From positions 11,129-75,128 of the forward strand of contig CAYWRI010000002.1 in NCBI GenBank assembly GCA_964461035.1: a DNA stretch of 64,000 bases, read 5' to 3'. The DNA is from an uncultured Methanosarcinales archaeon (GTDB taxonomy: Archaea > Nanobdellota > Nanobdellia > Woesearchaeales > CAYZNE01). A model generated the notes under the pieces. The model did not search any database. It was not told where the DNA came from and was given only the letters and a program-made list of their open reading frames with translations. Below, in pieces: positions 20,901-58,455 of the stretch. Made by a program: the position numbers and the translations under genes. Positions within the stretch are counted from its first letter, which is position 1. The number at the start of each line of letters is the position of its first letter.

Positions 20901-22091
20901 CCTGACACTGAACCTTTTGAAAATAATGATTATACAATAGTTGTTGATGCATATGATTATGCAATGAATCCTGTAAGAGCTAATACTTGGTCGTTAAACA
21001 TTAATGATAATGCACCTTCAACACCAATTGTTGAAGTTACAAATGCAGATCCAAATTACGGATTTTGGAATAACATATTCTTTGTGGCTGAATCACCAAT
21101 TATTCAATTAACATTTGCAGAGGGCGAATTAGTTGATTTGATAAGTGTCAAATTATTAACTGAAACTTCTGGTTTTAATTTAGATTGTCGTCAAGTATTT
21201 GATGGGAGTTTTATTTGCACTGTTGACAATCCTGCTTTAATTGAAAATAAAATTTCAATTATTGAAATATCTGCACAATTACTTGACACTGGCGGTTATC
21301 CACTTCGTGTTTCAATAGCTCATTGGTATGATAAACAAGTATCTTTTGACACGGGCGTTCCGAATTTCGAAGTTGATAATTTACCTGGTGCAATTCAACC
21401 AACTGAAGAATTTTCTTGGACAAATTTTTTGATTCTTCTAACGAATCCCGAATTAGATTTATTAGTTAATATATCTGAAGTTCTTGGTGAAGGTTCTCCT
21501 TGTTCAAATTATTTGTTATCTAATTTAAGCAGAAGTACAGATAATTTAACTTATTCTGCAATGTTAAATGCATCTTACTTTGGATGGGCGAGTTATAATA
21601 ATTACGAATTTCAAATAAGTGTTTTTGATAGGGCAATGAATCAAGTTTCTTCAGAATATAATATCTGGGTTGACGATATTCCTCCTGAAATAAACATTAC
21701 TGAATTTAAATCAAACGGAATATATATTTCGCCAGAAGAATTAAATATAACAACAAGCGATTTAAATATATCCATAGGTGGTGTTGTAAATGATTCTGCC
21801 ATGAAACATATTTGTTTAAATGTTTCCAGCGATGCAACATCATATCCTGAAATAACATGTCAATATCCCTGTCTTGAAGGTCAGACATCAGATTGTATAA
21901 CTGAAGATAATTTATTTACTTTTAATTTTACAATGTCCTTTGACTCTTATGTGAATCAAGGTGGACTTGTTTGGAATTATATAAATTTAGTTGCAACAGA
22001 TGATGCATTAAATAAAGAGCAGGCAAATTTAACTGCTTTGCTTGACTTAGAACCACCAACTGTTATAGGTGTATTTGTAGATATAGAGTGA
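14943..22091 (+). CDS. Giant secreted adhesin-like protein (about 2382 aa). It has a Sec signal peptide, a Cys-rich N-terminal region and multiple Ig-like domains. The track start at 14919 is replaced by the ATG at 14943.
   Basis: A strong SD-like 'gagggggagagaagt' sits 0-8 nt before the ATG at 14943. Signal peptide MNNKTLFNILVSLIFLLIFTSNIVA|DPP. Repeated domain-boundary motifs of the D-x-[ST]-x-P type: VDTESPRV, DNVAPAY, DTGVPNF, VDDIPPEI, LDLEPPTV. Very acidic. Confidence 0.8.
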   Translation: MNNKTLFNILVSLIFLLIFTSNIVADPPNYANTLEELLIGEDVFCNTTLQNSNPDDCHLVITCDGTTFDSFVLYTNYYFNYLITELTSTTHFIQDCPGVFEYEYNTPEYPTGCNPVGLTCAYGNCIYEDGETSNIPSEFTDHCFCDDDAQADSTHPYCCVVDELGIVYDVETDCGSGIAYDTYSMSGSIIPNPSSPILLNTSYYTSFVISTNGQQTNPDSLGAFTIQNLISGIYTLSAELTYPSGTSNVYCLGQVIRTISNAPIINADISVTCSLLPGGEPSACDNGCYDEGWQNSGTLDYCNAEILTTFALIDDYCVACPTSQLCDGQCTPNDCDETYHRFCDANSIWHDYFDEHTLYCDECFGDEICDEMPCEAPYNCDGEINGYCLTVFDDPDVGSGLCTYTLTSGDFLTDYLSISSNPLLEHAWCDREHSDWVYADSIVPVDLETYCAHCSGDLEYCTEPVCGDGQVTGLETCDLGYPWGNSELFVPCSGAFVCGQPQGSFSCQCIIDSCGTGGYQPGLEDCEEDTDCINPAFICNDQCECVMSTSCDFEDFSTLANVTYNEVMCTDDLIIVVTLLPACSDLIDEIIMFEIITGVPYVLDTQEITNPNILTYEFTDTLPAETEKQYQIELISHSEFVDITASLTSEPIDAGDPACVNWNPIEGDCQDFRCNDTGTSRLWCGFENELSEEGCTGNCIYNLDSIAVCDNDAYSLDACQSCMGMAGLFYNPNTVFSGTNDFCYSFFPPFGANIECFLDSWFTIVDQARSCAEVTSCYDYNSKDNCVGNDNYVADPCGISNADGCEWVNYNVQTSRGICRPSNPALYDCSSAMNKNTNSLFLYNQRGDTTTNNVLLSKRVCELYGDCFYTDIDNPVPSSGLQEGYNCVNYDGLKCSYFTTQNACENNSVFAITHSTFSPISFASNLISSDHAKCSWTNNKCIRDANDNNIDDHLPNEGFDSNYPLIPKSEYNFIMSPYALNEIQRDFYAPVTTISSLPEGNLFGKDVVINFLREDNLHPPENIHTYACLYEGEFDSTGQNLIPDECNPASEGNDWDYLEDGNFEHLFEPRSLSTILVYTLYYFSADESNNFETIKSEVLHINPTLPLINVSYSYESYPINNQYFNDLAVTILVTSEFPALCQIQLYSGLGEEIYPGEGINEPISFIINSGDTIDFPYYELSDGIYNFQVQCTDTFLGNSNSASKEMRIQGDTRINSSPFYEVLKQEYVNFTVQTANPAECYYLINNIKHNSDFETVYDRDSQSYSVMKSYFESSQDLSDENFVVKQFDSSEEPEEDGLYYHYANDVNFSNPRNVSGVYVYNVACNITIYDPELEQNVSEIVEGNPMHRIVFSQDYTAPQTAIKMKDWNDDSFEVYNLNSVWSLGPNVSFACKDLNYFDDYLPLWLEYDSDPRRNYFVESNVNLSAGCLEQSSLNFCRVGMGESPCDLQPISVQPYTFLFEDYDCEIVGYITGICEVVGVGGNTGGHYKRVCYNTIDALGNQRPTFCGDVKVDNVAPAYNRISNNDFIVYMQPMSEPLTTIGLGYYQIEIIVDEVPADYDISLSIASEILIDLDEFFDEDSMTLSATFIPHHYFPELYNISENLTFKIYLEDAHGVSDTYYKYNYLINTTSPPVPLFEPLLNEFHKLNYQILDILGNIYPLFYVPEYLLDANAYSLANFDLNETFFTYLDDLIITGFSSADSFELVLNDLVDENALNIHTIDTFIANEHEFIDETVPLLTVPIVNSIDYNRQGDIEIYLPHNDNLEDMVGARLGLPIDENNYDFGLAHAEQKQTAYGSYSKFYTVLSIAEDHITLNGVEDFHVTKYTLDVSLEEDLELDKNVSIYSSSSLIESYPSNYVALQMRDVEYKQTCDPNSGGNFYDLSIRSKFGNAATTIDSEKVFVDTESPRVAYITLPQGTYSELTPEIGFSIIEGSCGSGINIDDSNLNIIITETGELYRQISLSEILVDISEPFSGIDVAYSFLYQTPDTEPFENNDYTIVVDAYDYAMNPVRANTWSLNINDNAPSTPIVEVTNADPNYGFWNNIFFVAESPIIQLTFAEGELVDLISVKLLTETSGFNLDCRQVFDGSFICTVDNPALIENKISIIEISAQLLDTGGYPLRVSIAHWYDKQVSFDTGVPNFEVDNLPGAIQPTEEFSWTNFLILLTNPELDLLVNISEVLGEGSPCSNYLLSNLSRSTDNLTYSAMLNASYFGWASYNNYEFQISVFDRAMNQVSSEYNIWVDDIPPEINITEFKSNGIYISPEELNITTSDLNISIGGVVNDSAMKHICLNVSSDATSYPEITCQYPCLEGQTSDCITEDNLFTFNFTMSFDSYVNQGGLVWNYINLVATDDALNKEQANLTALLDLEPPTVIGVFVDIE

Positions 22092-25000
22092 TAACTTTAA
22101 AAAATAAAAAAAGAGGTGTAGGGCTTTCAGTTAAGAGCTTAAATTTTTTTATTTCTTTCTTATTATTAGTTATGACTATATCATTACTTACTTTACCCGT
22201 AAACGCAGATGATATTATTAAGTATTCAAATAATGCTTATCCTGAATTAACAATAAGTTTTTCAGAACCTATTTTACTAAGTAATGTAACTGCAAATGTT
22301 CGTTGTGCAAATGAAGATGGAAATTGTTTTCAACTATATGACACTCTTGATTCATTTGCAACAGTTTCAAATGATGGAATATCTGTTCAATATGGTCCAA
22401 ATTCAGACAGTTCTGTAATAGTATATTCATTAAATAGACCTTTGTTAAGTGATACATATTTATTTGAAACAACGGTTTCAGACTTACTTGGAAATGAATT
22501 AATTGATTATGAAATTACTTTAATTGTAGATTCTGAATCAGAAAGTATTGAGCTTATTGAACCAATTCAGGGTTGGGCAAATTCAACTTCATTTGATATT
22601 GTTGTTGAAACTCAATTACCCGGTTCTTGTTGGGCTAATCAAGAAGATTTTAAATTTTCACCAAATTTAGATAACACACATCTTTTTACTGATTCAACTT
22701 CAGGAATGCGACACACAATATCTAATATCGCTATTTGGGGAGATGATGCAATGGTTCGACATTCGCCATATGATCTTTATGTTGTTTGTAATTCTTCTAA
22801 TGCGGCAAACTCAAATAAAATTTATCTAGGTCATTTTATATTGGCGTGGGATGATACTCCGCCTAATTTAAATTATCATCCTGAATTTCAATATACTGTT
22901 CTTGATATTACAGAACCCTATGTGGATATGATTATTGAATCAGATTATATAACTGGAGATCCTCCCGATGAAATTGCTTGTAGATTAAAAAATTTAACAG
23001 AAGACGGAATTTCAATACAAAATTCACCCTATGAATTTTTTCCTAATATTAATTATTCTGACTTATGGAATTACACAAAAACAAATACGAAGCGTTTAGA
23101 TTTTTCATATATTCTTGACGGTGGAACGCCTAATGGTGGAGTGCATGAGCCCCATGAGTATAGATTTGAGGTTTCTTGTAGAAATACTGCTAGACTCAAA
23201 CCAACACCTTTTGAAAGAATATATGATATCACTGTGCAATTTGCTGATACATTTAGAATTGAAAAATTACTCCCTCATGATTATGTTAATGCAAATCCGG
23301 TTTTTATAGAAGTAAAAACTTCTGTTGTAACAGACGCTTGTAATATATCTGCTGAAGGTGCATCCTTAGATGAAATAGAACAAATGGTTCAAATTGTTGA
23401 TGAAAAAACATATGCTATATCTTTAAGTGGCTTAGAAGAGGGAACTCATTCTTACGAAGTAACTTGTTACTCTCACATATATACTAGCTCAGGATTGTTA
23501 AGCTTTGATTTTGTTGTTGATAGAACATCACCTTCACTCTTAGATATAAATTCTCTTGTCAAAACTTGCTCGCTTAATTCTTTTGAATTTGAATTATATG
23601 CAGAAGACAATGTCGGTCTTAATTATTTTAAATATAATTTTACGGGAGTTAATGTAAGTATTCAAAACATCATTAATTCAGAAGATACGGAGGACACTGT
23701 AAATGTAGAATTTGATGATTTAGAGTTAATTGAAAATCAAACTTACACAATAACTGCGTGGGTTTATGATCTTGCTAATAATTCTAAAGGTCCTGTAACA
23801 AAAACAATTACTGCTTCAAAACCTAATGATCTTGTTTGTGATTTATATCCTCCATCAATAACACTTAATGTTATTAATGAGTCTATGGGAGAAGTTACTG
23901 TAAAACTAAATTGTCAAGACTCTGGAAGTGGATGTTCTGATAATTATATTTTAGAAAGATTAGGAAATCTATCACATGCTTGCTCTTATTATAGTGGTCA
24001 CGAAATGCCTTTCTCAGACAATATTATAATTTCCTATGACACAAAAATATGTGCGCAAGCACACGATTTATCAGGTAATAGTGTGAATAAATCTTGGATA
24101 ATTGAAGTTCCAACAAATCTTCCTCAATATTGTCAGAATAATGTTAAAGATGAAGATGAATCAGGGATAGATTGTGGTGGTAGTTGTGTGGGGTGTTCTT
24201 TAGATTCTCCTTGTTTTTCAAGCACTGATTGTGTTTCAGGCATGTGGTGCGATCCTACTTTAAATCTTTGTAAATGGGCATCTTGTGATGATAAAATAAT
24301 GAATGGTCAAGAAACAGATATTGATTGTGGCGGTCCAGATTGTACAACTTGTTCAATTAATAGCTCTTGTTTAACATCTGATGATTGTGATAGTAATTAT
24401 TGTACTGCAGAAGGTATTTGTTCTTTATCATCCTGTTCTGATGGAATCATGAATGGTTTTGAAACTGATGATGATTGTGGCGGTCCAGATTGTACACCCT
24501 GTCAAAACGAAAAGGATTGTGATTTTGACACAGATTGTCAAAGTGGTTGTTGTAATTACGGAACTTGCGATGATTGTTCTAGTTCACCTTCACCTCTACC
24601 ACCTCCCCCTCCAAAAGATATTGTTTCGCTCATATTATTAATAGTTGGAATAGTTTTAATTTTGGCAGGAAGCGCTTATCTTTATTACTTGCATGCTAAT
24701 AAATTAAATTCTTCAAATACGCAAATAGGTTTTTCAGATTCTTTATCAGATTCTCGTATTTCAAAATCTAAACAATTAAAAACTCATTTAACAAAAGAGC
24801 AATTATTATCTTTAACCAATAGAAAAAAGCAAATGCGTAACAAATTTAAATCTAGAAAAACAGATAGATTATCTGAAATAGAAACAACCATGTCAGAATT
24901 TGATGAAAAAACTCTCGGAGTAAAAAAAGAAAAAAAAGACCAAACAACTAAAAAAGTTGAAAAACTTGTTGATAATATGGATTTAAAAAATAAGCAAGAT

Positions 25001-25735
25001 AATAATAAAACAGACGATGATAATAAAAAAATAAAAGAAAAACTTTCTGTTGATTTTCCTGCAAAAGATTTTATTTCGCTTAAAGAATTAGAAGAAAGTT
25101 CTGTAGAATTAATGAATAAAGATAAGAAGTTTAAGGATAAAGTTATGACTGATGTTTTTGCGCAATTAGAAAAATTACACGCAACAAAACCAGAAATAAA
25201 AAAAGCAAAGCAAAAAGATAAATTATCTGTTTATTATGATGGAGTTATTCCTGTTGAAGATGAATCTCCTATAGAAACTTTAGAAAAAACTAATTCCTCT
25301 AAAAAAGATTCTTCAAAGACAACTTCTAAAACAGCTTTAAAAATAACTTCAAAAATATCTAAAAATTCAAACAGTAAAAAATCAAAGTCTACAAATTCTA
25401 TGCCGTCTTCTAAAAAAGACGATGATGTTTTTTTGGCTCTAGAAAAAATTTCAAATTCCTCTTCAAAAACATCTTCTAAAAAAGATATAGAACTTAAATC
25501 TGATTCAATTAATTTTAAAAATAATCTTAACGCAGATACGGATAGTATGATTAACTTATTTAAAACTAATGAGTTAAATATTGATGTGTTTAAAGTAATA
25601 CTGTCCGAACTTTTAAACTCAAAAAAACTAAATAAACAAGATGTTTCAGGAATAATATTTAGACTTCTTGAACAAAAACTAATAAAAGAATCTAAAGCAA
25701 ATAAAATATTAACAGAATTAGGGTTATTAAATTAA
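22088..25735 (+). CDS. Type-I membrane surface protein (1215 aa). Order: signal peptide, Ig-like domains, three tandem Cys-rich modules, poly-Pro stalk, TM helix, and a ~350-aa Lys/Ser-rich cytoplasmic tail.
   Basis: GTG start overlaps the stop of the previous gene (GTGA). Signal peptide ...LLTLPVNA|DD. Ig-like boundary motifs WDDTPPNL, VDRTSPSL, CDLYPPSI. Three modules of the form D-x-D-CGG-x2-C-x2-C...MNG-x-ET. Stalk LPPPPPK, TM IVSLILLIVGIVLILAGSAYLYYL, then a K/S/D low-complexity tail. Confidence 0.8.
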   Translation: MITLKNKKRGVGLSVKSLNFFISFLLLVMTISLLTLPVNADDIIKYSNNAYPELTISFSEPILLSNVTANVRCANEDGNCFQLYDTLDSFATVSNDGISVQYGPNSDSSVIVYSLNRPLLSDTYLFETTVSDLLGNELIDYEITLIVDSESESIELIEPIQGWANSTSFDIVVETQLPGSCWANQEDFKFSPNLDNTHLFTDSTSGMRHTISNIAIWGDDAMVRHSPYDLYVVCNSSNAANSNKIYLGHFILAWDDTPPNLNYHPEFQYTVLDITEPYVDMIIESDYITGDPPDEIACRLKNLTEDGISIQNSPYEFFPNINYSDLWNYTKTNTKRLDFSYILDGGTPNGGVHEPHEYRFEVSCRNTARLKPTPFERIYDITVQFADTFRIEKLLPHDYVNANPVFIEVKTSVVTDACNISAEGASLDEIEQMVQIVDEKTYAISLSGLEEGTHSYEVTCYSHIYTSSGLLSFDFVVDRTSPSLLDINSLVKTCSLNSFEFELYAEDNVGLNYFKYNFTGVNVSIQNIINSEDTEDTVNVEFDDLELIENQTYTITAWVYDLANNSKGPVTKTITASKPNDLVCDLYPPSITLNVINESMGEVTVKLNCQDSGSGCSDNYILERLGNLSHACSYYSGHEMPFSDNIIISYDTKICAQAHDLSGNSVNKSWIIEVPTNLPQYCQNNVKDEDESGIDCGGSCVGCSLDSPCFSSTDCVSGMWCDPTLNLCKWASCDDKIMNGQETDIDCGGPDCTTCSINSSCLTSDDCDSNYCTAEGICSLSSCSDGIMNGFETDDDCGGPDCTPCQNEKDCDFDTDCQSGCCNYGTCDDCSSSPSPLPPPPPKDIVSLILLIVGIVLILAGSAYLYYLHANKLNSSNTQIGFSDSLSDSRISKSKQLKTHLTKEQLLSLTNRKKQMRNKFKSRKTDRLSEIETTMSEFDEKTLGVKKEKKDQTTKKVEKLVDNMDLKNKQDNNKTDDDNKKIKEKLSVDFPAKDFISLKELEESSVELMNKDKKFKDKVMTDVFAQLEKLHATKPEIKKAKQKDKLSVYYDGVIPVEDESPIETLEKTNSSKKDSSKTTSKTALKITSKISKNSNSKKSKSTNSMPSSKKDDDVFLALEKISNSSSKTSSKKDIELKSDSINFKNNLNADTDSMINLFKTNELNIDVFKVILSELLNSKKLNKQDVSGIIFRLLEQKLIKESKANKILTELGLLN
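24165..24580 (+). repeat. Three tandem copies of a Cys-rich module of about 48 aa (about 145 nt) within CDS 22088..25735.
   Basis: IDCGGSCVGCS..., DIDCGGPDCTTCS..., DDDCGGPDCTPCQ.... The stretch 'gattgtggcggtccagattgtaca' is identical in copies 2 and 3. Confidence 0.7.
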
Positions 25736-25771: not shown

Positions 25772-26260
25772 GTGAATAAAAAAGCAATAACAAAACAAAT
25801 CTTTACTTTTCTAATGGTTGCGATATTAATAGGACTACTCTTTTTATTTGGCATAATTAGTGCTAAAAACTTATTAACTCAAACTTGCAAAGCACAAAAA
25901 GCGCTATCTCAAAAAGATATTATGGACGCAATATCTGATTATAATAGTAAAGATTCAGCGCATACAGAATCAATAATTCTTTCCTGTGATTATACTGAAA
26001 TATGTTTTTTAGATGCGGAAAGACTTAAAACAAACTCTCCACCAATAACCAACATTCCTTACAAAGTAATGCAAGATGTAGTAACTATTCAAGGAGATTA
26101 TAATATATTTTTCGTAAAAGGAGATGTTGTTGAACCAATTGGATTTTCAAATAAATTAACTGTTGAAGGTGATGGAAGTCTTTGTGTTACTTCAACAGGC
26201 AATAGTTTTAAAATTATTTTTGTGGGTAAGGGAAGAACAACAGCAGTAAGAACAAGTTAA
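25772..26260 (+). CDS. Type IV pilin-like protein (class III signal peptide), 162 aa.
   Basis: SD-like 'aggtga' before the GTG start. N-terminus NKKAITKQIFTFLMVAILIGLLFLFGI is a short basic region followed by an uninterrupted hydrophobic helix. Confidence 0.55.
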   Translation: MNKKAITKQIFTFLMVAILIGLLFLFGIISAKNLLTQTCKAQKALSQKDIMDAISDYNSKDSAHTESIILSCDYTEICFLDAERLKTNSPPITNIPYKVMQDVVTIQGDYNIFFVKGDVVEPIGFSNKLTVEGDGSLCVTSTGNSFKIIFVGKGRTTAVRTS

Positions 26261-26270
26261 TAATTTTAAA

Positions 26271-26720
26271 ATGATATTTTCAAAAAAAGCATTTACAATA
26301 CAATTTAGTTGGATTTTTATTTTAATAGTTGGATTTTTTGTAATGTTTCTAGTAATAAGAATAATAACTTCCCAGACAGATGTATCTAAACAAGAAATAA
26401 ATTTGGATTTATCTAAGAATATAGATTCTATTTTATCAAGTGCAGAACAAAGCACAGACACTTTCAAAATAGTTCATACACCTGAACTCAAATTAACTTA
26501 TTTGTGTTTTGAAGATTACACCGCATATTCTGTTCAGAAAAATATAAATAAAATAGAAAATTCAATAATGTTTTCTTCTTCATCAATATCTGGAAGAAAT
26601 ATTTATACTTGGACAAAAGAGTATAAAATGCCTATGAAAATAACAAATGTTCTCTATGTTACTGACCCGCTTCATAAATTTATTTTTGTTGACGGGTATC
26701 CTGTTATTGATTATTGTTAG
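26271..26720 (+). CDS. Type IV pilin-like protein, 149 aa.
   Basis: N-terminus MIFSKKAFTIQFSWIFILIVGFFVMFLVI. Confidence 0.5.
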   Translation: MIFSKKAFTIQFSWIFILIVGFFVMFLVIRIITSQTDVSKQEINLDLSKNIDSILSSAEQSTDTFKIVHTPELKLTYLCFEDYTAYSVQKNINKIENSIMFSSSSISGRNIYTWTKEYKMPMKITNVLYVTDPLHKFIFVDGYPVIDYC

Positions 26721-26725
26721 ATTTA

Positions 26726-27289
26726 ATGCCTTCAAATATAACTAGGGAAGTTGTTAATAGTATTAATGACATAACTGATAATAATTATAATCAGTATATA
26801 ATAATGACTGCTACTTCGTTATCAGGAACTATTTTAAATGGTTTTTCCCCCATGTTTCTTAGAAAAATAATAGCTTTACAAATAACAACAGTTCCGGGTC
26901 AAGAAAATAAAGGACAAATTACTTTTTACAAATTTGATGATAATGGTCAGTCAGCAGTTGTCGGAGAAAACGAGTATGACTATATTGATGAAACTCTTTT
27001 GTTTGGCGCAATATTTACTGCAGATCCTTATTTGTACAATTGTACTGCAAATAAACTATTTGAAAAATCAAAATCAATATATCAAATATATAATTACACC
27101 GCAACAAAAATGAATCAAGCAACAACAAGAGTGATATGCAAAGATCCTTCAAGAGGGTATCTTTCTGTTATTAGTATATTGGAAGATATGATTACTTCAG
27201 ATTCTTCTAATACGATTTACGAAGATGCAATTCAGCTTCGATCTAGAAATACTTATCTTCAAAGAAGCGATTGTCCTCTTGCATATTAA
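26726..27289 (+). CDS. Hypothetical protein in the pilin operon (187 aa, no N-terminal helix). The track start at 26714 is TTG; the ATG at 26726 is preferred.
   Basis: Sits between pilin-like genes in the same orientation. Confidence 0.4.
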   Translation: MPSNITREVVNSINDITDNNYNQYIIMTATSLSGTILNGFSPMFLRKIIALQITTVPGQENKGQITFYKFDDNGQSAVVGENEYDYIDETLLFGAIFTADPYLYNCTANKLFEKSKSIYQIYNYTATKMNQATTRVICKDPSRGYLSVISILEDMITSDSSNTIYEDAIQLRSRNTYLQRSDCPLAY

Positions 27290-27339
27290 TTGTTAGTTCA
27301 TAATTGTTGTAGATTTAATAAATGAGCTAAAAATAAACA

Positions 27340-27849
27340 ATGACACTAAAAACATTAAATAAAAAAGCGCAACTTCAAATAACTGAAAATGTAGTTATAA
27401 TTATAATCATAATTTTCATATTTATTATTGGAATTGTTTTTTATAATAATGTTAAAAAAATTACGTATGTTGAAACAGTAAATGAATATTCTGACCTTGA
27501 TTTAGTAAAAGCAAGCCAAAAAATAACAAATTTACCCGAATTAAGTTGTTCTTTTAATGAGCAAGTAGAAGTAGGTTGTGTTGATGAATTAAAACTTGAA
27601 GCAGTTATTGCATTAGATTTATTGAATACATCATATTCTTATTATTATTCCATATTTGGAAAATCAAAAGTCATAATAAATACAACTTTTCCAGAACAGG
27701 GCAAAGGTTTTGTTATTTATGATAGTAAATTATCTGGAGACTATAATCAAATTCCTTTAGTTATTCCTATAAAAGTTTACAATCCTATAAACATGACAAC
27801 CAACTTAGGTTATGTTCAAATATTAAAATACACAGAGGTTTTTAATTAA
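27340..27849 (+). CDS. Type IV pilin-like protein, 169 aa.
   Basis: N-terminus MTLKTLNKKA|QLQITENVVIIIIIIFIFIIGIVFY. It has K-K-A|Q with Gln at +1 and Glu at +6, matching the archaeal FlaFind-type pattern. Confidence 0.65.
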   Translation: MTLKTLNKKAQLQITENVVIIIIIIFIFIIGIVFYNNVKKITYVETVNEYSDLDLVKASQKITNLPELSCSFNEQVEVGCVDELKLEAVIALDLLNTSYSYYYSIFGKSKVIINTTFPEQGKGFVIYDSKLSGDYNQIPLVIPIKVYNPINMTTNLGYVQILKYTEVFN

Positions 27850-27851
27850 TA

Positions 27852-28370
27852 ATGGTGTACTCAAAATTTCCTTCAAAAAAGGCACAAGTTGAAATTATGG
27901 GTCTTGTAATAATAGTTATTTTAATTGTAATAATAATATTTGTTGTTCTTGTTTTCATGTTAAATAAAAAACCGAATGAGGTTGTTTCAAAGTATTCTGA
28001 TTCTCAGTATCCCACCGCATTTATTCTTGCACTTTTAGACACAAGTTCTATGTGTCAAGACCATGTTCCAATAAAAAGTTTAATTTATGATTGTGCTGTT
28101 GACAAGAGAATTCATTGTCCAAGTTCAGATACTTCTTCTTGTAAATATTTGAATGAATCTCTTACACAAATATTTGATTCAACATTAAATGCGTGGGGAG
28201 AAAATTATGAATTTAAAATGGATCACGCAGCATTTATTCACTACAATAATTTTACTTTTTCATCTGGTTGTGGTCCTTATTCAACTGTTGAAACTAATCC
28301 CTTTCAAATTATTCCTTTGTGGCCAAGAAGGGATTTTGTCAGAGTAAGCATGAAAATATGTTCTAATTAA
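27852..28370 (+). CDS. Type IV pilin-like protein, 172 aa.
   Basis: N-terminus MVYSKFPSKKA|QVEIMGLVIIVILIVIIIFVVLVF. Confidence 0.65.
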   Translation: MVYSKFPSKKAQVEIMGLVIIVILIVIIIFVVLVFMLNKKPNEVVSKYSDSQYPTAFILALLDTSSMCQDHVPIKSLIYDCAVDKRIHCPSSDTSSCKYLNESLTQIFDSTLNAWGENYEFKMDHAAFIHYNNFTFSSGCGPYSTVETNPFQIIPLWPRRDFVRVSMKICSN

Positions 28371-28415
28371 AATAATTTATGTGTTTGAGAATATTATATT
28401 TTAATAAAATGAATT

Positions 28416-29105
28416 TTAATTTTCAGTAACGTGAATATTAAATTCTTTTGTAAATAAAGGCATTTTAGAATCCATTTTTTCATAGGCTTCAAGAATTATT
28501 GTACAATAGCCTGATTTTATTTTATTCATGTCAAATTTATTAAGATCACTTATTGGTTTTGGTAACTCAAGTTTGAATATGAGTGGTCCGTCAGGATTAA
28601 AACAAGGAGTTCCATCATTTAATTTAATTTCAAATTGTATGACGGAATAATTAAAATATCTGTGTGGTGCATATAACTCAAAATGTATTACTTCAGGTTC
28701 ATCTATTTCAATTAGATTTTCTTTTTCTATTTTAGGAAATAAATATTGCTTATCTGCAATACTATTAAAATAATAATTAAATTCAATTTTATCTGTAGGA
28801 TTGATTTCAGGTATACAACAAACTAAATCTTTTGTTGCTTCTTTTGTGTCTTCATTTGTTAAATCTAAACAAGCTCCTCTAAATGTAGAAACTCTTTCAC
28901 TTGAAAGACACATATCTTTACTTGTAACACAAATACCTGGTTCTCCAGGAACTATAAAACATTCTCCATGTTTTTCTAAAGCTGGATTTATTATATCAAC
29001 CACATTAGGTATTATGTTTAGAGAGATTAATAAAACTATAATAACTATTATCAGGGTGGCTATCATCCACATTACATTAGAATCCGCTTTTTTAGTATTT
29101 TTCAT
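28416..29105 (-). CDS. Type IV pilin-like protein with a Cys-rich knot ending in the 'VCCIP' motif, 229 aa.
   Basis: N-terminus MKNTKKA|DSNVMWMIATLIIVIIVLLI, then C-x-C-x-C...LVCCIPE. Confidence 0.6.
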   Translation of the reverse strand: MKNTKKADSNVMWMIATLIIVIIVLLISLNIIPNVVDIINPALEKHGECFIVPGEPGICVTSKDMCLSSERVSTFRGACLDLTNEDTKEATKDLVCCIPEINPTDKIEFNYYFNSIADKQYLFPKIEKENLIEIDEPEVIHFELYAPHRYFNYSVIQFEIKLNDGTPCFNPDGPLIFKLELPKPISDLNKFDMNKIKSGYCTIILEAYEKMDSKMPLFTKEFNIHVTEN

Positions 29106-29172
29106 TTTTTGATTTGTTCAAATTGTTTTATGTTTGTTAAATACGTATAAATTATTATTTTTAATACAATTT

Positions 29173-29439
29173 TTATTCAGGTTTTTCTCCACCACAGCAA
29201 ACATAATTAGGATTTGTTTCTTTTTTACAATTTATATCGCTACCTGCAAGATGAATAGTTCCTTCTGGGCAAGTTGTTCCTGCCTGACAAAATGAGGCTG
29301 CATAAGCTCCGCAACCTTTTTCTAGTTTTACGTTGTGAAATATATCTGTATAATAATAAATACCCAATCCTAAGCCTATAACCGCTAAAATAATCATAAT
29401 CACTTGAAATGACATTTGTGCTTTTTTATGTTTATTCAT
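29173..29439 (-). CDS. Small Cys-rich pilin-like protein (88 aa from the internal Met). The track ORF extends to 29532 and overlaps the upstream gene.
   Basis: MNKHKKA|QMSFQVIMIILAVIGLGLGIYYY, then GCGAYAASFCQAGTTCPEG...NYVCCGGEKPE. Confidence 0.55.
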   Translation of the reverse strand: MNKHKKAQMSFQVIMIILAVIGLGLGIYYYTDIFHNVKLEKGCGAYAASFCQAGTTCPEGTIHLAGSDINCKKETNPNYVCCGGEKPE

Positions 29440-31270
29440 TTTCTTGTGCCTCACATTCTTCTTCTGAATTATTCCATTCGCAAATAGAACATTGATCACA
29501 TTGATACTCATTACTAAGTCTATCACAATCATCTTTGTTTTGAGGACAAGTGCTACAGTAGTTAGTTAAAAAGCCCTTTTCTTCTTTATCTTCTCGTTCC
29601 CAATAACAATTTGCACCGGGTAAACAAGGATTTTGAATACAAGCATTTTTTCTTGCATAAATTTTACAATTCAAATTAGTTTGAGTTGCTTGAGCACAGG
29701 GCACACAATCATAATTTTCATCGCTATCACCACTACGTTTATCAGAATAACATTGATATTGCGGATTAGTACTACTACAAAAAGAATCAGCACTGCTATA
29801 AGGTGGACTATTAATAAAATAATTATTATAAATCTCGGCTTTAGTAGGATCTACAAAATTATATCCCAAATGTTCAGAAGTTATTTGACTATGAACTGAA
29901 TTACATATTTGTTCATACATAGTGTTGCCTCCCGCTCTCGATATGGCATCGCATTCAGCTATATCGCAAGTATTTGATGGACTGCTTTTTTCAGGATTCA
30001 CATAGTATATTTTTGAACAAGATAAGTGAGATTCTACAAAAATTGATTTTGTTGCAGGTGCAAAACCCATAATGCATATTTTTGATTCTGTTATTGGCGA
30101 ACTATAAACACCATCATTTTGAACTTGACCATTTTCTGCAAAAATAAATGAATCATAATATGATTCATATTGTTCAGGATTTGTTAGAGAAATTAAATTA
30201 TTAGGACATTTTTCTGATGACTTTTTTAGACTTATTCCAACAAATTCACAAGGATAATCTCTTGAATCATCTGTTTTTCTTGCTTTACAATATATGTCGC
30301 AGACTGTTCCCATTCCATTAACACCTAAAACGGGTCTTGACTCAATATTAAAAGAAATAGAATCAAAAGTTTCAGGAGTTGTTATTTCGTCTTCTAAGAT
30401 TTCAGGAACATCAACAAAAGTTCTTATGTACTGAGACTTATCATCACTATTACCATTCCATCCTTTCATTAAGAGCATGAACATTGCGTCTTTATCTCTT
30501 CTTTCTGGTTGTGCATAATTACTACATGATGCAAATGGTAATTTGGATTCCCAAACTTCTTTATTAAATGCTATGTCATTGGTTCTTTTAAAATAAACAG
30601 GGCCACTAATACTGCATTCACCTTTTGCATTTTTTGTTCCTGTAGCAATTTTCTTTGATTCATCAGCATAACTTGGATTATTTGATTCATCCATCCAATT
30701 AATCCTTAATTCACAATGTTCAACATCGGTCATGTTCCCATAAAATATGACTTTACCATCAGGATTTAGTCCATTTATTTCTACACCTACATTATCTCTT
30801 ACTTGATGACAGTTATGAATAACATTATTCCATTTACTAATTGGTCTTATTCCTGTAGCAGTTGCATCATTTCCCACGTTTTTATAAAATAATTGATCAG
30901 ATGATTTTGAATCTGGATCACCAGGTAGTATTTGTGAGCCTGGTGTTGTTCCATTATTATCTGATTTAGAACCACCCAAAATATTCAAATAACAGTTTTC
31001 TCCTACAACAATTTTTTCATTTTTTTCATTAAAACAATCAAGAAAACTTATTTTTATTCCCATTGCAGGCCTAACATCTGAACAAGACATTAAGGGATTA
31101 TAAGATTCACATTTAAACATTGATAAACCAAGACCTAAAGCAGAATTTATAAAATAAAGTGACACTCCAAGCACTACAAGCACTACAACCGCAGAAAGAA
31201 CTAATCCGAGTCCTGAATTCTCGCCTTTAGTATTTATTCGATGTTTCATTTTGTTATTTATCTCACACAT
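29432..31270 (-). CDS. Large pilin-like or secreted protein (612 aa) with an N-terminal hydrophobic helix and a Cys-rich C-terminus.
   Basis: N-terminus MKHRINTKGENSGLGLVLSAVVVLVVLGVSLYF. The C-terminal ~110 aa holds more than 20 Cys (CVPCAQATQTNLNCKIY...CSTCPQNKDDCD...). Confidence 0.65.
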   Translation of the reverse strand: MCEINNKMKHRINTKGENSGLGLVLSAVVVLVVLGVSLYFINSALGLGLSMFKCESYNPLMSCSDVRPAMGIKISFLDCFNEKNEKIVVGENCYLNILGGSKSDNNGTTPGSQILPGDPDSKSSDQLFYKNVGNDATATGIRPISKWNNVIHNCHQVRDNVGVEINGLNPDGKVIFYGNMTDVEHCELRINWMDESNNPSYADESKKIATGTKNAKGECSISGPVYFKRTNDIAFNKEVWESKLPFASCSNYAQPERRDKDAMFMLLMKGWNGNSDDKSQYIRTFVDVPEILEDEITTPETFDSISFNIESRPVLGVNGMGTVCDIYCKARKTDDSRDYPCEFVGISLKKSSEKCPNNLISLTNPEQYESYYDSFIFAENGQVQNDGVYSSPITESKICIMGFAPATKSIFVESHLSCSKIYYVNPEKSSPSNTCDIAECDAISRAGGNTMYEQICNSVHSQITSEHLGYNFVDPTKAEIYNNYFINSPPYSSADSFCSSTNPQYQCYSDKRSGDSDENYDCVPCAQATQTNLNCKIYARKNACIQNPCLPGANCYWEREDKEEKGFLTNYCSTCPQNKDDCDRLSNEYQCDQCSICEWNNSEEECEAQENE

Positions 31271-31326
31271 ATCTATTTACTTTTATAAATTCTAAAAATT
31301 ATAAATAAAAATTAAATATTATTTTT

Positions 31327-31584
31327 TTAGCTAGTACTTAGGATACAGCATTCCTGATTTCCAGGGCAAACCAATTCATTACCTTCATTATCATAAGAAT
31401 AATCTGCAAAAGCGCCATCACAAGATTCTCTGCACATTCCCATCTTAGAACTGCAACTTATTCCACTATCAATAGGCTTAATCATACTAACAACGAAGTA
31501 GATTATTACTCCTAAAACTAATAACCCAAGAACTGCCACTATTACTGTATGTAAACTTAAGCTCTGTGCTTTTTTATTCAACAT
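31327..31584 (-). CDS. Small Cys-rich pilin-like protein, 85 aa.
   Basis: MLNKKA|QSLSLHTVIVAVLGLLVLGVIIYFVV, then a Cys-rich tail ending ECCILSTS. Confidence 0.65.
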   Translation of the reverse strand: MLNKKAQSLSLHTVIVAVLGLLVLGVIIYFVVSMIKPIDSGISCSSKMGMCRESCDGAFADYSYDNEGNELVCPGNQECCILSTS

Positions 31585-31607
31585 TTTTTATTACCTCATT
31601 AGTTTTT

Positions 31608-31850
31608 TTAGATTGGTATGCAACATACAGGATCTTCTTCGGGGCATCCTCTCTGTCCACTTTCTAAATAGCCATCACCACACCAGCCAGAATCATCACA
31701 TCTTGCTCCAGATATTCCAGTACAACTTGTCTGATCAAAAAGTTCTCCACCTGTATTCAAAACAAGGGTTGCAAGAATTACTAGGACAAGTAATGATACT
31801 GCTGCAATAATGATTGTATTCATACTTAATCCTTGTGCTTTTTTATTCAT
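31608..31850 (-). CDS. Small Cys-rich pilin-like protein, 80 aa (tandem paralogue of 31327..31584).
   Basis: MNKKA|QGLSMNTIIIAAVSLLVLVILATLVL, then a Cys-rich tail ending PVCCIPI. Confidence 0.65.
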   Translation of the reverse strand: MNKKAQGLSMNTIIIAAVSLLVLVILATLVLNTGGELFDQTSCTGISGARCDDSGWCGDGYLESGQRGCPEEDPVCCIPI

Positions 31851-31960
31851 TTTTTCACCTCATTAATCTTTTTATGTTTAATGTAACTTAACCCATTCTT
31901 TATTTTTATTACCTTTATATATAAATTTATTGATAACTTTTATGTTTTTTTTGATATTTT

Positions 31961-32671
31961 TTACACTAAAGTCCATTCATATTCTCCATTAACTTTTTTA
32001 CATTGATATTCTATTCCATCACTTTTAATTACATTTTTTTGAAGATTTTCTTTTGTTTCTTTGCTAAATTCTTCTGTGCATTTAAACCAATAATAGTACT
32101 TTCCAGCATCTATTTTTGCACATAATAATCCTTTTGGTTTTGAATTTAATAATTGAATTATCGTGTTATCTGCAGTTGCGGTTATTGTTGTTATTGAAGT
32201 AAGATCCATTTCACTTAATATTCCATTGAAGTTTCCTAGTTTTCCATTAGGTTCAAATAAAAATGGTTCTTCAAATGTATCTGTGTCCTTAGTATATCCC
32301 TTAATAAAACAACCAAATCTATCCATAAAGTTAATTGGATATTGTTGTTCAAAAACATCTTTTGAAATATGTTCAAATTCTATGAATTTATCATAATCAA
32401 AAGTTTCAAATTTATTATCAACAACAAGTATAAATTCATAAGCAATCTTTTCAAACTGAATGTATTCTGCTGGAAATTTGTCACCTTCCACTTCTGCATC
32501 CATATAACTTTTGAATATTTCTTTTATAGAAATTATCATAGAATCTAATCCTTTTGTTATTGTTTTTGGAGAAAAATCTGATAATAATAAACTTGCAAGT
32601 ATAACGACGAATATTATGATTGTAACTACCATAGAATAATTTGCTTTTTTCTGTGAAATTATTTTCATCAT
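31961..32671 (-). CDS. Type IV pilin-like protein, 236 aa.
   Basis: MMKIISQKKANYSMVVTIIIFVVILASLLLS. Confidence 0.55.
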   Translation of the reverse strand: MMKIISQKKANYSMVVTIIIFVVILASLLLSDFSPKTITKGLDSMIISIKEIFKSYMDAEVEGDKFPAEYIQFEKIAYEFILVVDNKFETFDYDKFIEFEHISKDVFEQQYPINFMDRFGCFIKGYTKDTDTFEEPFLFEPNGKLGNFNGILSEMDLTSITTITATADNTIIQLLNSKPKGLLCAKIDAGKYYYWFKCTEEFSKETKENLQKNVIKSDGIEYQCKKVNGEYEWTLV

Positions 32672-32710
32672 TTTATTGCTCTATACTACTCTTTCATTCA
32701 TATACCTTAT

Positions 32711-32851
32711 TCATATTCGGATTAAGCCTCTTATAACATCTATAAATCCCTTGCTTGCATCTTGCTGTTGTGACATACCAACTATAATAACTATTAGGAA
32801 TAGAAGTGATAGGACTATCCAGAATACAATTGAATACATTCCTTTTTTCAT
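32711..32851 (-). CDS. Mini-pilin-like peptide (46 aa from the internal Met MKKG...). The track ORF 32711..32956 is longer.
   Basis: MKKG|MYSIVFWIVLSLLFLIVIIVGMSQQQDASKGFIDVIRGLIRI. It consists only of the signal region plus the hydrophobic helix. Confidence 0.4.
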   Translation of the reverse strand: MKKGMYSIVFWIVLSLLFLIVIIVGMSQQQDASKGFIDVIRGLIRI

Positions 32852-32936
32852 ATTATTACCTCTTTTTTTGATATTTATAATCTTTTTGATTAAATCATGC
32901 AGTTTGACGAACTTACACTTGAAAGTCAAAATTTTT

Positions 32937-34001
32937 TTATTTTTCAAATTCCACACTCATTTCACAATTCATCGATGATATCATCCATGTTTCATATGGT
33001 ACAACATACATTGCTGAGATTATTATTTTTTTTCCATTAGAACTTATATGATTTATTTCATAAAAAACAATTCCGTAGTATGTGTATTTATCTTGTTTTT
33101 TATAATCTTGAAGTGTTCCAGTTTCATAATACTCTTTGAGGTTTGCTTCAAGAACCGCAAGATGTTCCTTAATCTTTTGATCCTTAGCTTCTGTATTAGC
33201 AATTTCACCCATTCTCGTAGTTTGACTGAGCGCAAGTATATATGATTTTGAACCTTCACTTTGAGTTTCTAAAGGAATTTCGGTAACTAAGTGGGCATAT
33301 CCTAGATAACAGTTTTCAACCCAGTTTTTATATTCTGGATAGTCATCTTTGAATGAATCATGATGAAATCCCGTAATTGCAAAAAAATTAGAATAACTAC
33401 TGTAAATATTAACTACCTGATTAAAATAATGATCATCATTTCTTTTAAGATATTCTTCAATAGTTATAGTATTATCTGAACTTGTAGGAAACAATTCTTT
33501 GATATTAGTATAGTATAATATGTTCGACCAATTATTCATTTGAAAATTTTCATTAAATCTAACAACATATCTTACATGACAAAATGCATCTTTAGTAATA
33601 TCAGGATAAAACATTTTCTCTCCTTCACCAAATTCATTCCATGTTTTGACAGTTAATTTTATTAGCTCTTTTTGAGCTTCTTCTTTAGTTTCAGCCTTAG
33701 ATTTTATCATTTTTGTATTACATTCTATTGGAGGAACATTAGTTTTATCTACGTCAAACAAATAAGCTAGCAAACCAATATTTTCATCAATTTTTTTCTC
33801 TGTTCTTAATAACGCTTCAACAAAATTTTTATGAGTTTCTATTGAAGCAATACAATTAGTTTCTTCAATTTCGTCTTTAAACTTAGAACCTATTAAGCTA
33901 TTTACCAAAATCGACATTATTATGATACTTATGCAAATAATTATTATCACATTTACTATATCTTTCAAATCTGTTTCTGCTTTCTTTCTTTTAATTATCA
34001 T
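32937..34001 (-). CDS. Type IV pilin-like protein with a large C-terminal domain, 354 aa.
   Basis: MIIKRKKA|ETDLKDIVNVIIIICISIIIMSILV. Confidence 0.55.
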   Translation of the reverse strand: MIIKRKKAETDLKDIVNVIIIICISIIIMSILVNSLIGSKFKDEIEETNCIASIETHKNFVEALLRTEKKIDENIGLLAYLFDVDKTNVPPIECNTKMIKSKAETKEEAQKELIKLTVKTWNEFGEGEKMFYPDITKDAFCHVRYVVRFNENFQMNNWSNILYYTNIKELFPTSSDNTITIEEYLKRNDDHYFNQVVNIYSSYSNFFAITGFHHDSFKDDYPEYKNWVENCYLGYAHLVTEIPLETQSEGSKSYILALSQTTRMGEIANTEAKDQKIKEHLAVLEANLKEYYETGTLQDYKKQDKYTYYGIVFYEINHISSNGKKIIISAMYVVPYETWMISSMNCEMSVEFEK

Positions 34002-34010
34002 TTTTAAACA

Positions 34011-35123
34011 TTAACCCATTGGAAGGTAAAGTCCCTGAAATTTTGCGATTTCAGTTTCAGGACGTAGTATTTGTAAATTATACGGGATGGCAACCAGCAA
34101 ATTCATGTTTATTATGTTACCCGCTAAGGTGCTTGTTTCAGCAACTAAATATTCCACATTTATATTATATTGAATGGTAGTATCTATTTTATTATCTCTA
34201 TTTTCTCCTATTACCATTTGTTTTAGATTATTTTTAAAATTAAATGCGGCCACATTTTGTTCTGAAATAGTTTTAATTCTTTCCATATATCTTTCAACCA
34301 TAAGATTATAATTATCTAAGAATACCGAGTCATCAATTTTTTTATCTGGAGCAAAGGGTGCAAGATATTTTTTTCTAAAATAGTCTGCATAAAACATATC
34401 ATCTGTATCTTTTGTTTTTAGAATACTTGCAAAATTATATAATTCCGTTAATTCAGTATTTAAAAATACTTTTGAATCAAAGTTAAAAGATACACAGGGT
34501 TTTGCCATAATCATGTTGCTTGGTTCAATACCTGATAGGTTTACTAGTTTTTCAGTTCCTGCACCCATAATTGATTTACCGTTTATTATTTCTTTAATAA
34601 CGTCTACACTATAAACATCTGCAGGTGAACTGATGGCGGTTTGTTTCATGAGTTTCATTGTTATTTCATTAACATCTCCTTTAAAGTTTACAACCGCTCT
34701 TGATATTAACATACTATCAACATAATAAATATTATCGCATAGTTTCATTTCCTGTAATATTATAGAGTATACTGCGTATTCTCTTTCTTTCTCTTCAGGA
34801 AAATAAATATGCTCATTTTTTAGTTTTTGAATTTCTTTTGAATACGAATAAGTAAATATTTTTTCTTTCTTATCACTTAAAAGATCATATTTAACTGCCT
34901 CTTTTTCTCCAAACTTAAGAATATATTCATGACAAGTACTAAAACCTACAGGAACTCCTTTTGCTGACAGTGCGATTTGTGTTTTACAAGCTTGATAGTT
35001 CGTATTGTTTGTAATCAGAGTTATTATCATGATTGATAAACCAATTAAAATAAGAGCTCCAATGAAAAGCAATATTATCTTTACTGAGCTGTCAATCATT
35101 GCTTTTTTTGTTTTTAATTTCAT
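34011..35123 (-). CDS. Type IV pilin-like protein with a large C-terminal domain, 370 aa.
   Basis: MKLKTKKA|MIDSSVKIILLFIGALILIGLSIMIITLI. Confidence 0.55.
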   Translation of the reverse strand: MKLKTKKAMIDSSVKIILLFIGALILIGLSIMIITLITNNTNYQACKTQIALSAKGVPVGFSTCHEYILKFGEKEAVKYDLLSDKKEKIFTYSYSKEIQKLKNEHIYFPEEKEREYAVYSIILQEMKLCDNIYYVDSMLISRAVVNFKGDVNEITMKLMKQTAISSPADVYSVDVIKEIINGKSIMGAGTEKLVNLSGIEPSNMIMAKPCVSFNFDSKVFLNTELTELYNFASILKTKDTDDMFYADYFRKKYLAPFAPDKKIDDSVFLDNYNLMVERYMERIKTISEQNVAAFNFKNNLKQMVIGENRDNKIDTTIQYNINVEYLVAETSTLAGNIINMNLLVAIPYNLQILRPETEIAKFQGLYLPMG

Positions 35124-35251
35124 TTTGGAACCATCTTTTGTAATATTCCTTTAATTATTAAGAATGCGAGAAACCCAATCAATAATGAAATTATAAGTGT
35201 TGCAATTGTTTCCTTTAATTCTGCTTTCTTGTTTGCATTTTTTTTATTCAT
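35120..35251 (-). CDS. Mini-pilin-like peptide, 43 aa. Not in the supplied track. It overlaps the start of the downstream gene (ATGA).
   Basis: My own translation gives MNKKNANKKA|ELKETIATLIISLLIGFLAFLIIKGILQKMVPK*. It is the first gene of the minus-strand pilin operon, and its stop overlaps the ATG at 35123. Confidence 0.45.
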   Translation of the reverse strand: MNKKNANKKAELKETIATLIISLLIGFLAFLIIKGILQKMVPK

Positions 35252-36699: not shown

Positions 36700-36715
36700 A
36701 AGAGCGTGAGAAAAG

Positions 36716-37102: not shown

Positions 37103-37103
37103 A

Positions 37104-57527: not shown

Positions 57528-57536
57528 TTTTTAATA

Positions 57537-58454: not shown

Positions 58455-58455
58455 T

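Follow-up and report, generated by a model that had tools for sequence, protein, structure and literature searches.

Type IV pilin-like proteins of archaea, loci that hold pilin genes only and pili in DPANN archaea are already known. A host-attached life is generally assumed for DPANN archaea; for the Woesearchaeota, which are among the most widespread of them, no published description of an attachment apparatus was found in the literature searched. The subject of this work is an island of pilin-like genes at positions 25772-35251 of a 64-kb stretch of contig CAYWRI010000002.1 (64,000 nucleotides, here called the window). With moderate confidence, we read this island as the repertoire of structural subunits of a type IV filament-like surface apparatus whose assembly machinery is encoded elsewhere. 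The closest known system, on the best reading, is that of the Epd or 'system 1' pili.

Type IV filament 'system 1' (the Epd type) has many pilins together with a small major pilin and occurs in methanogens, Thermococcales and DPANN (bioRxiv 10.64898/2026.04.22.720090). The pilins of Methanococcus maripaludis carry leaders of 5-13 amino acids (aa) followed by Gln at position +1, come in sizes of 67-76, 130-156 and 200-299 aa and are encoded at four loci or more (PMC3875500). The DUF361 signature is QxSxExxxL and includes Glu at +5 (PMC2910488, PMC3875500). Sites of the peptidase EppA read KGQV, KGQI, KGQL and RAQI and those of PibD read KAIS, KGIS and RALS (PMC4371748). Pilin genes outside the ATPase loci are common in archaea (PMC4858521), and flaI, flaJ and flaK are reported from most metagenome-assembled genomes (MAGs) of Woesearchaeota (PMC11606122, PMC5994134).

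Comparison with described systems

The island resembles the Epd pili of M. maripaludis in several respects. The leader is short, Lys or Arg precedes a small residue, and Gln stands at +1 in the core families. Like the 74-aa one of M. maripaludis, the candidate major pilin here is tiny (80-88 aa) and has mid-sized and large pilin-like companions; the size classes of the island match the M. maripaludis repertoire. In both cases the pilin genes lie apart from those for the ATPase and platform protein, at several loci. The island differs in its signature, which is Q-G-I-S-I-N, Q-x-x-x-x-E or Q-V-E-I-M-G rather than Q-x-S-x-E-x-x-x-L and has no match to PF04021, and in having Ala at -1 as often as Gly. 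Its small pilin ends in a six-cysteine knot, whereas the Epd major pilin has no globular head. N-glycosylation sequons are few here (found in 4 of 118 members of the small family), and no peptidase is encoded in the locus.

The stand-alone PilA-type loci of Haloferax volcanii and other archaea likewise hold pilins apart from pilB and pilC, in several paralogues among which the H-domain is highly conserved (PMC4371748, PMC4858521). The proteins described here differ from these in matching neither Pilin_N nor DUF1628, and their 14 genes, of at least eight families, stand in one island together with genes for giant surface proteins. New are the families themselves, which neither Pfam nor NCBIfam recognizes, the conservation of a machinery-free island across Woesearchaeota and Nanoarchaeota, a four-gene module tied to the giant proteins, and the knotted head of the candidate major pilin.

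Organization of the island and its N-terminal motif

A dense run of at least 14 pilin-like genes in two convergent operons, with products of 43 to 612 aa, had been proposed from the DNA alone, and both statements hold. The open reading frame (ORF) listing and a per-gene analysis give 14 genes, four on the plus and ten on the minus strand (labelled as in Table 1), with operon-like spacing on both strands and products of 43 to 605 or 612 aa. All carry the motif. The original prediction counted five genes in the plus-strand run; the run stands and the number falls to four, since 26271-26720 and 26714-27289 are a single frameshifted gene, as set out below.

In each of the 14 proteins a basic leader of 4-11 aa ends in a putative processing site, which is K-K-A in 12 of them, K-K-G in m09 and T-K-G in m13. 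Each has exactly one hydrophobic helix, which is N-terminal, and the remainder of the protein is mostly acidic. Set against a FlaFind-type definition, all 14 have Lys or Arg at -2 and Gly or Ala at -1, near the N-terminus, and one transmembrane (TM) segment after the site, with the caveat that in every protein 2-6 polar and in some cases charged residues separate the site from the hydrophobic core. The pattern had been described as K-K-A or K-K-G followed by Gln or another polar residue. Gln at +1 is seen in only five of the 14 (p04, p05, m11, m12 and m14).

The motif is concentrated in the island. A strict scan of the 64 kb for [KR][KR][AG] plus a hydrophobic helix, which is our own rule-based version of the FlaFind-type definition, gave 12 matches within 26283-35230 and one elsewhere, at the N-terminus of the 1094-aa protein encoded at 8363-11647 on the minus strand. 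Counted by gene, the motif occurs in 14/14 inside and about 1/37 outside the island (Fisher p ~1e-11, the outside gene count being approximate). Other secreted proteins of the window carry ordinary Sec-type signals that lack the basic-basic-small site.

The plus-strand pilin-like genes form the tail of a longer operon-like run, which opens with two giant surface proteins (14919-22091 and 22088-25735). From the first of these through the second to p05 the successive gaps are -4, 36, 10, 50 and 2 nt.

The window is AT-rich (24-33% GC) and contains archaeal markers, namely TrmB, OapB, OapC and archaeal-type aminoacyl-tRNA synthetase neighbours. An origin of the island in a mobile element or virus was considered and is disfavoured: its GC content (27-31%) is like that of the window, and it is conserved across divergent genomes of 28-49% GC. 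Pfam scans of the window ORFs revealed no integrase, and a tRNA scan and an Rfam scan gave no matches. A sigma-70 promoter scan was uninformative (74 found, 72.8 expected).

Conservation of the putative processing site

Conservation was followed in 93 related loci (~1.3 Mb). The different families align with one another only over their first ~35-45 residues (hhalign probabilities of 70-96%), and after the site each keeps a signature of its own. The +1 Gln of the DUF361-type motif is found in the core families. It is invariant in a 118-sequence alignment (A2) of the small six-cysteine family, 93% conserved in the p04 family, where it is joined by E+6 (90%), and 87% conserved in the p05 family, where E+3 and G+6 reach the same figure. 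Position -3 is Lys or Arg in 64-96% of family members, which anchoring does not impose, and the spacer before the hydrophobic core has a median of 1-8 residues across the related families. The sites are also like those studied experimentally for EppA (KGQV, KGQI, RAQI) and PibD (KAIS, KGIS) (PMC4371748). The proposal that these N-termini are class III, pilin-type signals is in part supported, by the short leaders and the family-specific conserved residues after the site among other features; it finds no backing in the curated models or in the predicted fold of p05, which are weighed below.

The small six-cysteine family

At the core of the island lie tandem genes for small six-Cys proteins of ~80-90 aa, represented here by m11, m12, m14 and, in extended form, m15. 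A profile built from the three small six-Cys proteins plus the orthologue in the related locus L006 retrieved 681 proteins of 77-126 aa (word-seeded), all of them annotated as 'hypothetical' and none with a Pfam domain. Against reference genomes it found 80 loci, the window's own genome not being among them (best identity 54%). Among the related loci, 86 carry the family, in 238 copies or about 2.8 per locus.

Members are 30-65% identical overall. G+2, S+4 and N+6 plus ten helix positions are at least 90% conserved, and the helix is the best-conserved segment of the proteins, with 13 positions at or above 90% within residues 7-26. Judging from the alignment, such conservation of helix over head is the pattern of a type IV pilin and not that of a generic anchor. 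The motif [KR][AGS]Q lies within the first 30 aa in 112/118 members, and the median leader is 5 aa long. In an AlphaFold2 model of m11 (pLDDT 81), a helix spans residues 6-40, starting exactly at Q6, the +1 Gln, and is followed by a three-stranded sheet.

Six cysteines are present in 115/118 members, at a median spacing of 6, 4, 11, 9 and 0 (C-6-C-4-C-11-C-9-CC). They make the C-terminal ~35-40 residues a putative knot with a weak likeness to beta-defensins (PF00711, trans-defensin fold) in spacing, motifs and predicted fold. The likeness is limited to a head of ~35 residues and consists of six cysteines ending in CC, a spacing near C-6-C-4-C-9-C-6-CC, the motifs G-G-x-C and C-P, and a predicted three-stranded sheet. 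Pfam Defensin_beta is matched weakly by 44/118 members (best E 2.6e-4), a PDB profile search lists beta-defensins, gallinacin-11 and crotamine at E 0.5-7, and the top Foldseek matches to the model of the small protein are defensin-type peptides, all of these matches being below conventional significance. Unlike beta-defensins, the domain has longer last two loops, is acidic rather than cationic (median net charge -3, positive in only 8.5% of members), is fused to a pilin-like helix and is archaeal. That so minimal a knot of three disulfides arose by convergence is no less likely than that it is homologous to that of defensins. It is a doubtful proposition that with this head a trans-defensin-type fold would be seen for the first time outside animals and for the first time on a pilus; were the head a true structural relative, it would bear on the origin of the trans-defensin fold.

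In some related loci the tandem small pilin genes have a multi-TM protein directly upstream. It is a DUF6159 protein of ~294 aa in L010 (9004-9888) and L011 (95-979), and an unannotated protein of ~304 aa in L012 (8844-9758) and L013 (516-1430); both are absent from the window.

Recurrence across the lineage and the four-gene module

The density of the run had been thought unusual. Class III-like N-termini were counted in 45 related loci, each longer than 15 kb and each from a Woesearchaeota or Nanoarchaeota MAG. Their median is 15 per locus (~20 kb; range 4-20), so the density is the norm of the lineage. The commonest +1 residue in the related loci is Gln (36%). The conserved core of the island comprises the small six-Cys tandem, a four-gene module downstream of the giant proteins and several families of 170-350 aa; in 32-65 loci there are also single-helix families of ~303, ~327, ~171 and ~271 aa. 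No ATPase or polytopic membrane protein belongs to the conserved set. Relatives of the window genes come only from MAGs of Candidatus Woesearchaeota, Nanoarchaeota and Nanobdellota and from bulk-submitted MAGs labelled 'uncultured Methanosarcinales', from which the source is taken to be a Woesearchaeota-type DPANN archaeon.

The four-gene module consists of p01, p02+p03, p04 and p05. The families of p05, p04 and p02+p03 emerged from unbiased clustering in 66, 65 and 61 loci, each essentially single-copy, and iterative searches with hidden Markov models (HMMs) gave 107 matches to p01 in 66 loci. Clustered at 50% identity, the p05 family numbers 1,888 representatives in public data. Eight of its 107 aligned members show a weak match to Pfam DUF7288 (best E 2.6e-4), on which no literature was found. 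Contigs with p05 relatives encode one or more giant proteins and then, in the same order, proteins of ~165, 340, 160 and 165 aa. This synteny of giants and four pilin-like genes is seen in L002, L006, L010 and L012, and the giant family as a whole occurs in 57/93 related loci. In the same four loci the p01 orthologues retain [KR]-[KR]-[AGS] followed by a conserved Gln. Next to the module in L002 the minus-strand cluster is missing; the two halves of the island are therefore separable modules.

By analogy, the module recalls the minor-pilin sets of bacterial type IVa pili and type II secretion systems (FimU-PilVWX-PilY1; GspH-I-J-K). As in these, four pilin-like genes stand in fixed order and single copy, one of them is much larger (~350 aa), very large adhesin-like proteins adjoin, and a Glu near the mature N-terminus is conserved in two of the four (E+6, E+3). 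The parallel is one of analogy only, and no sequence similarity was found. The p05 model is unlike pseudopilins or minor pilins, the giants here have Sec-type signals and a C-terminal anchor of their own and lack a PilY1 or DUF2341 domain, and the host of these genes is an archaeon.

The second gene of the module is interrupted in this genome. A -1 frame change lies at ~26710-26715 (within 26700-26720), in ...GATTATTGTTAGATT..., and divides the gene into 26271-26720 and 26714-27289. The orthologues are uninterrupted; L002, L006, L010 and L012 have single ORFs of 338, 349, 351 and 394 aa. Both window halves match one family, single-copy in 61-62 loci and of median length 352-354 aa, and duplication of one base at ~26710-26715 restores a 339-aa protein that is collinear across the junction with the L002 orthologue at 41% identity. 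The two frames are therefore one gene, and 26714-27289 is its 3' half rather than a separate gene, which leaves 14 genes, all with the motif. The frameshift may be genuine, a variant present in part of the population, or a mistake of the assembly, and as far as the sequence goes the module may be impaired in this genome; no independent assembly covering 26700-26720 was found.

Many reference MAGs titled 'uncultured Methanosarcinales archaeon' (L015, L016, L022, L024, L025 and others) carry this Woesearchaeota/Nanoarchaeota-specific island, and their titles look like placeholder or wrong taxonomy. Genes for AsnC/Lrp-type regulators lie inside the islands of 14 loci and genes for AbrB/MazE-PhoU-like proteins inside those of 11 (e.g. 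L006 9799-10266 and 8710-9681; L012 12172-12783). These are candidate island regulators, and none is present in the island of the window.

A possible filament and its alternatives

If the island does supply the structural subunits of a filament, the precursors would insert into the membrane and a signal peptidase of class III (FlaK, PibD or EppA type), encoded elsewhere, would cut the leader of 4-11 aa after Ala or Gly, exposing an N-terminal Gln in many members. Proteins m11, m12, m14 and the extended m15 would polymerize through their conserved helices into a thin filament, its surface covered by acidic three-disulfide heads, with a FlaI/PilB-type ATPase and a FlaJ/TadC-type platform, again encoded elsewhere, to drive the process. 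The four-gene module would serve as a minor-pilin-like primer or cap that couples the filament to the giant Cys-rich proteins, which would be adhesins. The remaining members of 230-610 aa and the helix-only mini proteins might be accessory or alternative subunits. Attachment to a host cell or surface is the likely biological role. A more specific version, in which a lineage-specific filament has a major pilin of ~75 aa with a beta-defensin-like knot, four minor pilins, giant adhesins and a motor that is never linked to them, is conceivable, though we would not expect all of it to hold.

The island offers candidate parts for the whole lineage, namely an amplified small subunit with a disulfide knot, the four genes of the single-copy module and adhesin-like proteins of giant size. 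With its subunits annotated as hypothetical and invisible to Pfam and NCBIfam, standard surveys of DPANN pili would miss them; defined families would allow metatranscriptomes, metaproteomes and cryo-electron tomography data to be queried directly.

Several findings weigh against a filament. One group concerns the machinery. Pfam scans of nearly all window ORFs of at least 100 aa (all but the one of 2390 aa and a few antisense ORFs that overlap others) found no T2SSE/FlaI ATPase, T2SSF/FlaJ platform protein or A24 peptidase, in agreement with the original prediction that the window lacks a PilB/FlaI-type ATPase, a PilC-type platform and a prepilin peptidase. The sole T2SSE-labelled match in the window is the P-loop of an ABC/ECF ATPase. 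Nor were an ATPase, platform protein or peptidase detected within ~10 kb of the small-pilin gene in the 93 related loci, where Pfam was applied to all P-loop and multi-TM ORFs (21 single-member families excepted). A presenilin-type SPP (GxGD) protease in two related loci was rejected as too rare to count as linkage. With none detected in the window or near the small-pilin gene of the 93 loci, linkage lends a filament machine no support. Machinery encoded elsewhere would fit the reports of flaI, flaJ and flaK in the lineage and of pilin-only loci in archaea.

A second group concerns the proteins themselves. The residue at +1 is E, M, D, N, I or F in 9/14 island members, and all 14 have the polar, sometimes charged spacer before the hydrophobic core; both features are looser than in textbook class III signals. 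The DUF361 motif QxSxExxxL is shared at Q+1 only, the Glu lying at +6 in the p04 family and at +3 in the p05 family. The models sought were Pfam Class_IIIsignal/DUF361 (PF04021) and Pilin_N (PF07790) and the NCBIfam archaeal flagellin/pilin N-terminal models. Thirteen of the 15 window ORFs, all except m06 and m09, gave no pilin or class III match (E<=1 with Pfam/NCBIfam for the first ten, E<=0.01 with Pfam only for m07, m08 and m10), and neither did 118 small-family, 107 p05-family and 10 other-family members. The HMM check that had been suggested for the island, with DUF361 and the archaeal pilin N-terminal domain, found no match among the members scanned. Profiles of the small and p05 families match no solved pilin, and the predicted structure of p05, the only mid-sized island member with a structure model, resembles PAS/Cache sensor domains and not a known pilin fold. 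The similarity of the hydrophobic helices in hhalign is also partly compositional, which inflates the scores.

Some of these findings would suit a different explanation, in our view unlikely, that the proteins are uncleaved N-terminal signal anchors of type II topology, with basic leaders that follow the positive-inside rule in a genome rich in Lys and AT, and that they form a lineage-specific envelope or glycocalyx-like coat or act as receptors. Such proteins would need no pilin model to match and no assembly genes beside them in 93 loci; the polar or charged spacers of 2-6 residues after the putative site would be natural, and the PAS/Cache-like ectodomain of p05 is of a fold typical of membrane-anchored sensors. 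In that case the island would define a novel envelope layer. The positive-inside rule, however, leaves unexplained the fixed small residue at -1, the invariant or near-invariant Gln and the conserved Glu, Gly, Ser or Asn at fixed offsets in several unrelated families. It gives no reason for a helix more conserved than the ectodomain, or for proteins of 43-46 aa that consist of leader plus helix only, and other secreted proteins of the window make do with Sec-type signals that have no such site. Proteins that are processed by a class III peptidase could also build something other than a filament, such as a short pseudopilus or a bindosome-like platform, a scaffold close to the membrane that displays or secretes the giant Cys-rich proteins in the manner of type II secretion pseudopili or the Sulfolobus bindosome. 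We rate this below uncleaved anchoring and as distinctly improbable. It would sit well with a single-copy module directly downstream of the giants and with the many heterogeneous 'pilins' of 230-610 aa, which are hard to fit in a thin fibre, and archaeal class III signals do occur on non-filament proteins, e.g. substrate-binding proteins (PMC2910488, PMC4371748). No substrate-binding or enzymatic domain was detected in any island member, however, and an amplified and conserved family of ~80 aa at ~2.8 copies per locus looks like a major filament subunit. A pseudopilus and a filament are inseparable by sequence data alone.

It is very improbable that the small six-Cys proteins are defensin-like toxins or antimicrobials, either tethered to the membrane or released and aimed at the membranes of hosts or competitors, with the helix serving as an export or anchoring signal. 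The cysteine spacing near the beta-defensin pattern and the defensin-type entries among the Pfam, PDB and Foldseek matches are what suggest it. Those matches all fall below conventional significance, however, the Cys domain is acidic, unlike the cationic membrane-active defensins, the helix is the most conserved part of the protein, and the genes sit among other pilin-like genes.

Gene-by-gene features

The genes of the island and the large surface proteins of the window are listed in Table 1.

Table 1. Pilin-like genes of the island and large surface proteins of the window. A slash marks the putative processing site.
Feature	Coordinates	Strand	Size (aa)	Site	Description
2390-aa protein	14919..22091	+	2390		Cys-rich (97 Cys); Sec-type N-terminal signal; opens plus-strand run; overlaps next gene by 4 nt
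1215-aa surface protein	22088..25735	+	1215		KKRG plus hydrophobic stretch; Cys-rich ETDxDCGG repeats; C-terminal TM helix; Lys-rich cytoplasmic tail
p01	25772..26260	+	162	KKA/ITKQIF	First gene of four-gene module
p02+p03	26271..27289	+	~339	KKA/FTIQFSWIF	Second module gene; frame-interrupted
p04	27340..27849	+	169	KKA/QLQITE	Third module gene
p05	27852..28370	+	172	KKA/QVEIMG	Fourth module gene
m15	28416..29105	-	229	KKA/DSNVMW	Helix; small-pilin-type Cys-rich domain (8 Cys total); extra ~120-aa C-terminal domain
m14	29173..29439	-	88	KKA/QMSFQV	Small six-Cys pilin-like protein
m13	29432..31270	-	605-612	TKG/ENSGLG	Large Cys-rich pilin-like protein (32-33 Cys)
m12	31327..31584	-	85	KKA/QSLSLH	Small six-Cys protein; candidate major pilin
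m11	31608..31850	-	80	KKA/QGLSMN	Small six-Cys protein; candidate major pilin; nearest family consensus
m10	31961..32671	-	236	KKA/NYSMVV	Pilin-like
m09	32711..32851	-	46	KKG/MYSIVF	Helix-only mini protein; precedes no other of its size class; paired with m08
m08	32937..34001	-	354	KKA/ETDLKD	Pilin-like
m07	34011..35123	-	370	KKA/MIDSSV	Divergent member of ~290-aa family
m06	35120..35251	-	43	KKA/ELKETI	Helix-only mini protein; overlaps m07 by 4 nt; first minus-strand gene
1094-aa protein	8363..11647	-	1094	KKKG/NKVDNTAQMTIFFVMGIV... (also given as KKKG/NKVDNTAQMTIFFVMG...)	46 Cys; island-type N-terminus; outside the island interval

The starts of m14 and m09 are most likely the internal Met codons that precede the motif, at 29439 and 32851. 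Iterative HMM searches recovered m15 alongside the small Cys-rich family. The large m13 has no sequence relatives in the 93 loci; in L012 a 603-aa protein with 50 Cys follows two small pilin genes, and its N-terminus is different from that of m13 and not pilin-like. No relatives of m10 were found in the related loci, and it has no Pfam match. Pairs of a tiny protein and one of ~300-340 aa, like m09 and m08, are encoded in L012 (53+341 and 73+304 aa) and L010 (54+290 aa). A word-seeded search with m07 returned only m07 itself, and the iterative HMM gave 139 matches, of median length 287 aa, in 71 loci. An independent assembly, L001, also has the very short m06 as a called gene.

Giant surface proteins and neighbouring genes

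The giant proteins of the window (14919-25735(+)) and their counterparts in L002 (1-7951) and L006 (17-4615) share repeated modules rich in Cys (G-x-E-T-D-x-D-C-G-G-x-x-C...), a TM helix at the C-terminal end and, on the cytoplasmic side, a long tail rich in Lys. The 1215-aa protein matches no Pfam family, and from its sequence Sec cleavage is likely at ...PVNA/DD. Its L002 orthologue, of 1148 aa, occupies the same position, and the same repeats and tail are found in L006. Relatives of the 1094-aa protein exist in five other loci. L012 encodes a 1000-aa protein (4454-7456) that begins similarly, with RRG/EIGFTF plus helix; it and the 1094-aa protein may be giant pilin-like adhesins.

Upstream of the giants, 11710-14737(+) encodes two overlapping membrane proteins of 541 and 483 aa, which have a homologue in one related locus only (L065). 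By size, 11710-13335 and 13286-14737 were considered as an ATPase and platform pair and rejected, as one has a weak match to PMT_2 (GT-C glycosyltransferase-like) and the other none. They might glycosylate surface proteins.

The adjacent M50 peptidase at 35376-35954 was considered as a linked processing enzyme and rejected, as it recurs in no related locus. The same is true of the GTPase/OapB/OapC and MoxR/DUF58/VWA genes; as none of these neighbours lies beside related clusters, their adjacency is treated as incidental. A GTPase of MMR_HSR1 type followed by the origin-associated proteins OapB and OapC is encoded beside the island (36070-37490(+)), and a replication origin may be nearby. The interval 53652-60364(-) holds a MoxR (AAA_3)-DUF58-VWA/BatA operon and then a gene for a 1291-aa PKD/Big_9 surface protein; vWA and MoxR proteins were reportedly listed by Makarova et al. 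in 2016 as possible regulators of type IV pili.

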